DNA of 63,138 nucleotides, filler included, from Collodictyon triciliatum (taxonomy: Eukaryota), in the NCBI GenBank assembly GCA_043381765.1. It is 13 parts of 13 records of this genome, joined end to end, with 100 filler letters (N's around TTAATTAATTAA, not from the genome) between each part and the next. Parts side by side here need not be neighbours in the genome. Positions count along the whole stretch, not along the records: positions 5,433 to 10,814 come from JBHJMP010005293.1; 12 more parts are not named here. One strand, 5' to 3'. Under the pieces are notes generated by a model. The model was given only the letters and a program-made list of their open reading frames with translations, did no database searches and was not told the DNA's origin. Positions 7,981 through 9,383 of the stretch are shown piece by piece (the stretch's first letter is position 1; each line of letters starts with the position of its first letter). Both the position numbers and the translations under genes were made by a program.

Positions 7981-9309
7981 TACATGTAATAGATTTGCCA
8001 AGCGTGGATGTGTTTCTAACTATTATGTCATGTATTTTTTTCGGAAAGGAAGTGATGAGATGCCACACGGTGCCCTTCTTATGGCTTGTCTGCAAGTGTG
8101 TTTCATCCATAGCTTCAGATTTATGGGCGCTTGAATTTGTGTTGTAAGCCTCTCCATCTGCGCACATCACTGTACGACTCTTTTTATTCCAACATCAATG
8201 AAAATATATCGTGTTGTATTAGACACCTAATTGTTTTAGTTTGTCAAACATGGTTTTTCTTACGAGAATAAAACTTGTTCCAAAGTTGCATTCCATTATT
8301 TCTGTCAACGAGAAAACCCTGGCTGGTATAAATTTAACTTTTTAATTTTTTAATTTAAATTGGAGTAGCTGTACAATCACGGAGCCTTTAAAAGAAGGAT
8401 TTTGGGAAACTACCAGGTCTTAGCAAGCTCTTCAGAAATATCTGTTAGGTTAGACGTCATGACAAGAATGAGGCGGGGCTGTGCAGGCGAGTGTGCTGTA
8501 TTTTTGTGAGTGTCTTGCATACTTTTTATTTGTTAAGTGAATGTGCGTGACAGAACACACAAAAAGAGCGACGCGGCTGCGTGAGGGACATAGATACTTA
8601 GAATTGTTGTGAGGGGTGGGGCTGACTGTCGAAAAAGAAAAAAATAGTTGAATAAATCAGCCTGATACTTGTTTTTAATTAAAAAAAAATTGCCTGGTGG
8701 TAAATGTTTAGTTCCGACCTGACATCAAAATATGCATACAAGTGGGTGTATTTTCCAGACATTGTCCTTTCGTGCTGTTGGTAGCAGCATGCCTCACAAT
8801 TTAACGGGTATTTCGTAGTGATTGCTACGGTAAATATAATTTGCGATTAATGAATTTCAATATCTAATTAATTATCATTTATATATATTGAAGCTTTTAC
8901 TTTATGCAGGATGGGCGGCGTTGCCCTGGTTCGCTAGCCTTTATTTGGACTAACATCACTTGGACATGGCGGCGCGCAAGTAAATATCTATCGATTAAAT
9001 ATCATTTTTTTCACCGATTCATTTTTTTTGACTATTTATCAAGAATATATCCTAAATTTTCTATGCCTCATTTTTTTCTATCAGTCTTTTTTTTTTATCA
9101 ATATGAATTTGGGTGCAATCGAATAGGTTGTATCGCACGTGTGAACACTAAAATATCTTACTAAAGGATTTCCAACCCAGATGCACACTCGCATCGATTA
9201 TGACGTGAAATCCAATAAATTGGTATTGAGCAAATGGCGGGATAAATGCATTTTTTCAACGAGTTCATCCCATTCGACCAGACAGACCAGTTAAGATTCT
9301 ACATTGTAC

Positions 9310-9335
9310 TTTGAATCGAATAAAGGGAAAAAAAA
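9310..9335 (+). mobile_element. Ultra-short retroposed insertion, copy B
   Basis: TTTGAATCGAATAAAGGG-A8 lies between perfect 17-bp direct repeats AAGATTCTACATTGTAC (9293-9309, 9336-9352). Confidence 0.9.
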
Positions 9336-9383
9336 AAGATTCTACATTGTACGACTGAAGGTATTAAGTTGCTTTTTTTTTAC

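Follow-up and report, generated by a model that had tools for sequence, protein, structure and literature searches.

Why should four insertions on four unlinked contigs, each retaining only the last 17-20 nt of a retroelement together with an A-run, begin at almost the same point of that element? The question arises in a window (the whole stretch of DNA analysed here, 63,138 bases) that is composed of 13 unlinked eukaryotic contigs, spaced by N44-TTAATTAATTAA-N44, and whose long open reading frames encode TIG, LRR, RING and P-type ATPase domains. Microsatellites or homopolymer runs occupy the ends of most contigs, for example (GATTGG)n, (ATT)n, 9-14-nt A/T-rich units and long T or A runs (including 37880-37928); such low-complexity ends are typical short-read assembly breaks. 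The best sequencing-run matches to the window are freshwater metagenomes, with shares of at most 0.15 that are too low for a statement on habitat.

Results

The micro-copies

With up to two mismatches allowed, GAATCGAATAAAGG has six matches in the window as compared to 0.99 expected, and six were reached in none of 100 shuffles. Five of the six are exact or carry a single mismatch (770, minus strand; 9313, plus; 9807, plus; 14472, plus; 42486, minus), and the sixth, at 2953, with two mismatches and without an A-tail, looks like a chance occurrence. The first-pass annotation had described four free-standing copies of the motif in both orientations, each with a flanking direct repeat of its own, and direct reading of the coordinates on the four unlinked contigs bears out both points: TTTGAATCGAATAAAGG(G) followed by an A-run stands free on contigs 1, 2, 3 and 8, in what we designate micro-copies A, B, D and E, respectively.

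The insert of micro-copy A (763-786, minus strand) consists of a 17-nt LINE tail and A7, and its flanking repeat is T-rich and degenerate. Micro-copy B spans 9293-9352 on the plus strand, with an insert at 9310-9335 that comprises a body with the GGG tail (9310-9327) and an A-run; its duplications, 9293-9309 and 9336-9352, agree at 17/17 positions. Micro-copy D (14451-14513, plus) has an insert at 14467-14497 made up of AC, the GGG tail (hence an AC-TTTG start) and A11, between duplications at 14451-14466 and 14499-14513 that are imperfect (~14/16, one indel). Micro-copy E (42464-42519, minus) carries an insert at 42503-42480 with a 17-nt tail containing one substitution, A6, and one extra A that sits between the repeat and TTTG; its repeats, 42519-42504 and 42479-42464, are perfect (16/16). 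The GGG variant is common to B and D, which have 30 identical nt. In all four micro-copies the A-tail, ranging from A6 to A11, is followed directly by target sequence. The nick is placed at TT|AAGA in B and at TT|ATCA in E, and the TT|A start claimed earlier for these two duplications is thus seen at both; the same context is probable at D and ambiguous at A (n = 4).

A scan of the whole window that was not based on the motif, for an A-run combined with a perfect flanking repeat of at least 12 bp, returned B and E as the only genuine cases, the remaining matches being tandem repeats and one pair of 12-mers 2.9 kb apart. A candidate fifth short insert at 27902-27994 (minus) was rejected as a tandem duplication of a CAA/CAC-rich unit of ~71 nt; it sits in a GC-richer stretch with overlapping open reading frames. 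In the region of 57441 (plus), the sequence TAAAGGG followed by A7 is similar to the final 6-7 nt of the tail in its GGG variant, and this could be a still shorter stub, or chance.

The source element

A fifth motif copy, at 9804-9827, had been missed by the first-pass annotation. It is not free-standing but forms the 3′ terminus of a LINE fragment at least 444 bp long (9384-9827, plus strand), a 5′-truncated long copy that terminates in TATGAATCGAATAAAGG and A7, passes from there directly into target sequence and matches the metagenome contig L002. Relative to L002, ~454 nt are missing between 9561 and 9574 by internal deletion. As its flanks read, the long copy is probably bounded by a target-site duplication of 8/9 positions, TTTTTTACA / TCTTTTACA. 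A second fragment of the family (43447-43858, plus) lies at the start of contig 9, lacks the 3′ part and represents the C-terminal portion of ORF2, again with a match to L002. The segment 43524-43700 was considered as an empty-site paralogue of 9384-9561 and rejected, the similarity being LINE sequence that stops short of the insertion.

L002 was the only related contig among 10 loci obtained on scanning a metagenome collection with the 20-nt tail pattern; in prokaryote genomes (9 loci) and viruses (3 loci), the scan with the 20-nt tail gave none similar to the element. The minus strand of L002 terminates in the same tail, followed by A10. In the reverse complement of the contig, 161-337 is 82% identical to window positions 9384-9561, 792-1053 is 87% identical to 9574-9827, and 84-484 is 90% identical to 43447-43847 over 401 nt; at protein level, the 43447-43858 region gives 82% over 136 aa (tblastn). 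The frame of L002 extends over 202 aa before a frameshift and includes a zf-RVT zinc knuckle (PF13966, E 1.5e-7), which identifies it as the C-terminus of ORF2. A HMMER search with this frame returned 14 relatives. Seven of them, at E ≤ 1e-10, are short fragments with 59-98% identity, and four are full-length proteins of 1226-1275 aa with 29-38% identity, all four containing Exo_endo_phos and RVT_1 and three of them zf-RVT. One full-length relative, P0009, matches human L1 ORF2p at E 3.4e-57, and its match to L002 is 28% over 159 aa. No longer relatives came out of a word-based search. The APE and RT domains are therefore those of relatives at 25-38% identity, the element's own sequence comprising only the C-terminal ~200 aa. 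From these sequence relationships, the source element is understood as an L1-like, APE-type, poly(A)-tailed LINE of this genome. In its 3′ UTR, ~110 nt upstream of the A-tail, a hairpin at 9692-9720 (L002 minus strand, columns 13-41 of alignment A2) is conserved with one compensatory change, U-A to C-G, between the two LINE copies, and according to the fold it may serve as an RT recognition element.

In both L002 and the window's long copy, the terminal 17-20 nt and the A-run are what the micro-copies match; in micro-copy A, 24 nt are identical to the tail of L002. Because this tail identity is to L002 and to 9384-9827, and L002 carries the zf-RVT C-terminus of ORF2, a LINE tail and not a SINE is assigned as their origin; because they exhibit A-tails, 16-17-bp duplications and TT|A nicks, target-primed reverse transcription (TPRT) by an L1-type enzyme is assigned as their mode of formation. 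Micro-copies A, B, D and E are extreme 5′-truncated, dead-on-arrival target-primed copies of the 3′ end of an L1-like LINE. The earlier attribution to target priming by an APE-type LINE is thereby upheld, with the source family present in the same window (9384-9827 and 43447-43858) and in L002.

Contig 2 in related sequencing runs

Contigs assembled from related sequencing runs cover the locus of micro-copy B. The close relatives X2 and X4 contribute 460 and 384 contigs, mostly 90-99% alike, across all of contig 2, and a further 82 contigs of X3 and 3 of X1 were placed on it. Contigs that fit two places of contig 2 number at least 21 in X2, at least 13 in X4 and at least 1 in X3, and they presumably reflect the tail repeat (9308-9337 versus 9800-9829), the only internal repeat known there. 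At least three X3 contigs run to 9337 and then continue into unlike sequences (agreement 0.62), as expected of other tail copies. In both X2 and X4, at least one contig departs from the long copy at 9830 and enters a foreign flank that is the same in the two runs.

In at least three X2 contigs (depth 80), 9309 is connected to 9485 through a single G, a join that reads as the upstream flank, one 17-mer and GACTG, the last being the five bases after the window's second repeat. In at least one further X2 contig, the alignment begins at 9336 and is preceded by five letters that do not align to the A-run. Among the matches listed, and as read from summary rows, both X2 joins fit a relative that has an empty B site together with a downstream difference of ~131 nt, which hints at a recent insertion.

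Many GT..AG joints in the X2 and X4 contigs over 7400-9170 delineate an intron-rich gene on the plus strand of contig 2. Micro-copy B and the long LINE copy are situated just past the last mapped intron of this gene, possibly in its 3′ UTR.

The shared 5′ end

Numbered upstream from the A-tail, continuous identity to the LINE tail starts at -17 in A and also in E, where an unmatched A occupies -18. It starts at -19 in B, where AC is common to the target repeat and leaves the start ambiguous between -17 and -19, and at -19 or -20 in D. Immediately before TTTG, D and possibly B retain the AC of the LINE itself. All four free-standing copies accordingly have their start between -17 and -20, a spread of no more than 3 nt, and the clustering of 5′ ends noticed at the outset holds for these four copies in both the tail alignment and the truncation models. 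If truncation were uniform over the last 254 nt, four ends would fall within ≤3 nt with a probability of 1.5e-5. A BLAST search of the 1.1 kb L002 against the window (word size 7, E ≤ 10) revealed no 3′-anchored copies between about 20 and 250 nt in length.

The length of the body varies by 3 nt while that of body plus A-run, ~23 to 31 nt, varies by ~8 nt. Since the body is near-constant (17-20 nt) over A-runs of 6 to 11, the stop appears to track sequence position and not cDNA length, and on that ground we take it as a property of the template site. Drift of the A-run weakens this argument somewhat. We consider it probable that the shared start has a position-specific cause, a provisional conclusion from four copies in one window.

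Discussion

The reading that we favour, with a probability of roughly 0.45, is that reverse transcription of the LINE RNA stops at a fixed site and that this stop makes the stubs. The LINE endonuclease nicks the target at a T-rich|A site, where the A-tail primes, and a second, staggered nick gives rise to the 16-17-bp duplication. First-strand synthesis would then halt at a position-specific point, either immediately past a UUU tract that lies 17-20 nt before the A-tail or a few nt farther on. Attachment of the short cDNA to the upstream target end would follow, through annealing at B and D (over the microhomology AC, and more at D) and directly, with 0-1 extra nt, at A and E. Pausing or dissociation of the RT, or a bound factor, would be the likely cause of the stop, and chance appears unlikely. 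An rU:dA hybrid is weak, and we infer that such a hybrid at the UUU tract contributes to the stop.

The first-pass annotation had also considered a structural block on the template. Folding of the LINE 3′ end (last 90-165 nt, both copies) yields z-scores of -0.14 to -1.87, with folds that are unlike between the copies. The two-sequence consensus fold is weak (-15.95 kcal/mol), and its only well-kept hairpin, at 9692-9720, is away from the stop. As the predictions give no stable conserved stem at the stop, the structural block is left unsupported. Searches of the window at the Rfam gathering score and with ARAGORN detected no ribozyme, tRNA or other RNA family, and L002 searched against Rfam at E ≤ 1 gave just two weak matches to lncRNA models and no ribozyme. 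On these models, neither a structural nor a ribozyme cause of the fixed start appears supported.

A possible, if doubtful, alternative locates the specificity in the RNA: the LINE transcript would be cut 17-20 nt upstream of the A-tail, by small-RNA-guided slicing, for example, or by another host or element nuclease, and the tail fragment, bound by ORF2p, would be copied to its 5′ end (run-off). Position-specific 5′ ends that are independent of A-run length are consistent with such a pre-cut RNA, as is the finding of no structure to explain an RT stop. The direct joins at A and E, with 0-1 extra nt, are as run-off predicts, and for these two copies, which lack microhomology, run-off on pre-cut RNA fits equally well as the RT stop. 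Against it stands the fact that no self-cleaving ribozyme, tRNA-like element or other Rfam family was found in the LINE 3′ end. The target end of D, moreover, agrees with the LINE at 6/8 positions from -20 to -27, a match for which we estimate a chance probability of ~0.004-0.01. Read from the sequence of this junction, the match is a hint that the cDNA ran beyond -19 before it annealed, and thus that the template was longer than the stub or than the fragment proposed.

Both the fixed stop and the pre-cut RNA imply a position-specific cause. The unlikely contrary case is one of non-specific early abortion, with most TPRT attempts failing within tens of nt and the similar lengths arising as a small-sample coincidence above the detection floor. 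Copies under ~12 nt would escape detection, n is 4, and a geometric low-processivity model that sets the mean 5 nt above a floor of 12 nt produces a range of ≤3 nt with a probability of 0.17 (17% of trials), other models of this type giving values down to 4e-5. The same models, however, place all four ends in 17-20 with a probability of ≤0.0017, and a suffix scan of the window for shorter tails of 6-16 nt found nothing convincing. The variation of 3 nt in the body, versus ~8 nt in body plus A-run, speaks against early abortion as well. A generally feeble RT is disfavoured by the occurrence of long family members (at least 444 nt and 412 nt in the window, at least 1 kb in L002).

It is very improbable that the micro-copies constitute an independent micro-SINE, with a master gene of its own and merely sharing the LINE 3′ tail. 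The 5′ ends are uniform, like those of full-length SINE copies; a tail common to a partner LINE, as used to define SINEs, is present; and B and D have the GGG variant in common within their 30 identical nt. The minimal SINE put forward in the first-pass annotation nevertheless fails on several counts. A body of only 17-20 nt contains no Pol III promoter head (tRNA, 7SL or 5S) and has no room for one, and ARAGORN and Rfam report 0 tRNA genes and 0 matches, respectively, in the window. Furthermore, the 5′ ends are offset from one another by 2-3 nt, E and A having a base there that is additional or does not match, and the copies are collinear with the LINE through AC at -18/-19. In short-read contigs with low-complexity ends, one might suspect an artefact of assembly or library preparation (an adapter, for instance, or an oligo-dT-primed chimera), but its probability is negligible, given that each copy has unique flanks and its own duplication, that both orientations occur, and that the same tail ends the LINE in the independent metagenome contig L002 and is present in contigs of other runs.

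Clear analogies exist between the micro-copies and known retroelements, along with clear distinctions. SINEs with LINE-derived 3′ tails share the tail of the partner LINE and depend on its RT. The Drosophila suffix element is a short, free-standing retroelement of a few hundred bp whose sequence is that of the 3′ end of the F-element LINE; the micro-copies resemble it as a free-standing family of LINE 3′ ends and differ from it in having 17-20 nt instead of a few hundred bp. With a length of ~100 bp, Platy-1 has been described as the shortest primate SINE (PMC4864456). Unlike Platy-1 and SINEs, the micro-copies are without a Pol III head and collinear with the LINE, and they are five-fold shorter than Platy-1.

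For L1, Yamaguchi et al. 2014 (PMC4245944) give 15-bp target-site duplications and 5′ joining by annealing or directly. The present insertions share with 5′-truncated L1 insertions the A-tail, a duplication of ~15-17 bp, the nick at T-rich|A and both modes of 5′ joining, whereas L1 has scattered truncation points and the stop falls here, in 4/4 copies, within 3 nt and 17-20 nt from the A-tail. A parallel in which TPRT has reduced the element body to a few nt is known from SERPINC1, where a 6-bp Alu remnant with a 40-nt A-tail is listed as the shortest Alu insertion (Table 1 in Hancks & Kazazian 2016, PMC4859970). In contrast to such isolated human disease truncations, the ultra-short product recurs here on four unlinked contigs. 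The same review identifies no consensus for the 5′ truncation of L1 and SVA and implicates template stem-loops, in a position-dependent manner, in that of Alu (PMC4859970); beside the present stop, by contrast, no stable or conserved stem is predicted.

What causes the 5′ truncation of LINEs is still an open question in the field, the review naming no consensus (PMC4859970), and a LINE whose aborted copies end at one point offers a defined site to mutate and at which to map RNA and cDNA ends. A search of the literature, with Repbase, Dfam and supplements outside its scope, found no description of a recurrent family of 17-20-nt LINE tails or of this motif. Standard repeat finders may miss stubs this small. 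Every stub carries AATAAA and an A-run, and at a density of ~65 copies per Mb (4 in ~62 kb, this window only) the stubs could seed polyadenylation signals and A-rich microsatellites. We tentatively suggest, as a rather speculative extension, that a site-specific event 17-20 nt from the A-tail turns most attempts of the LINE into harmless ~25-bp stubs, the event being either RNA cleavage by host defence (e.g., small-RNA-guided slicing) or a programmed RT stop. Were this true, no smaller recurrent retroposon family would be known, and the stubs would offer a natural system with a defined cause of 5′ truncation.

Other features of the window

Two long open frames complete the description of the window. 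The first (21975-25178, plus strand) encodes 1067 aa without a Pfam family, its best Atlas feature match of 0.77 serving as a lead only. The second (33406-37926, minus strand) encodes 1506 aa with four IPT/TIG domains and reaches the contig end.
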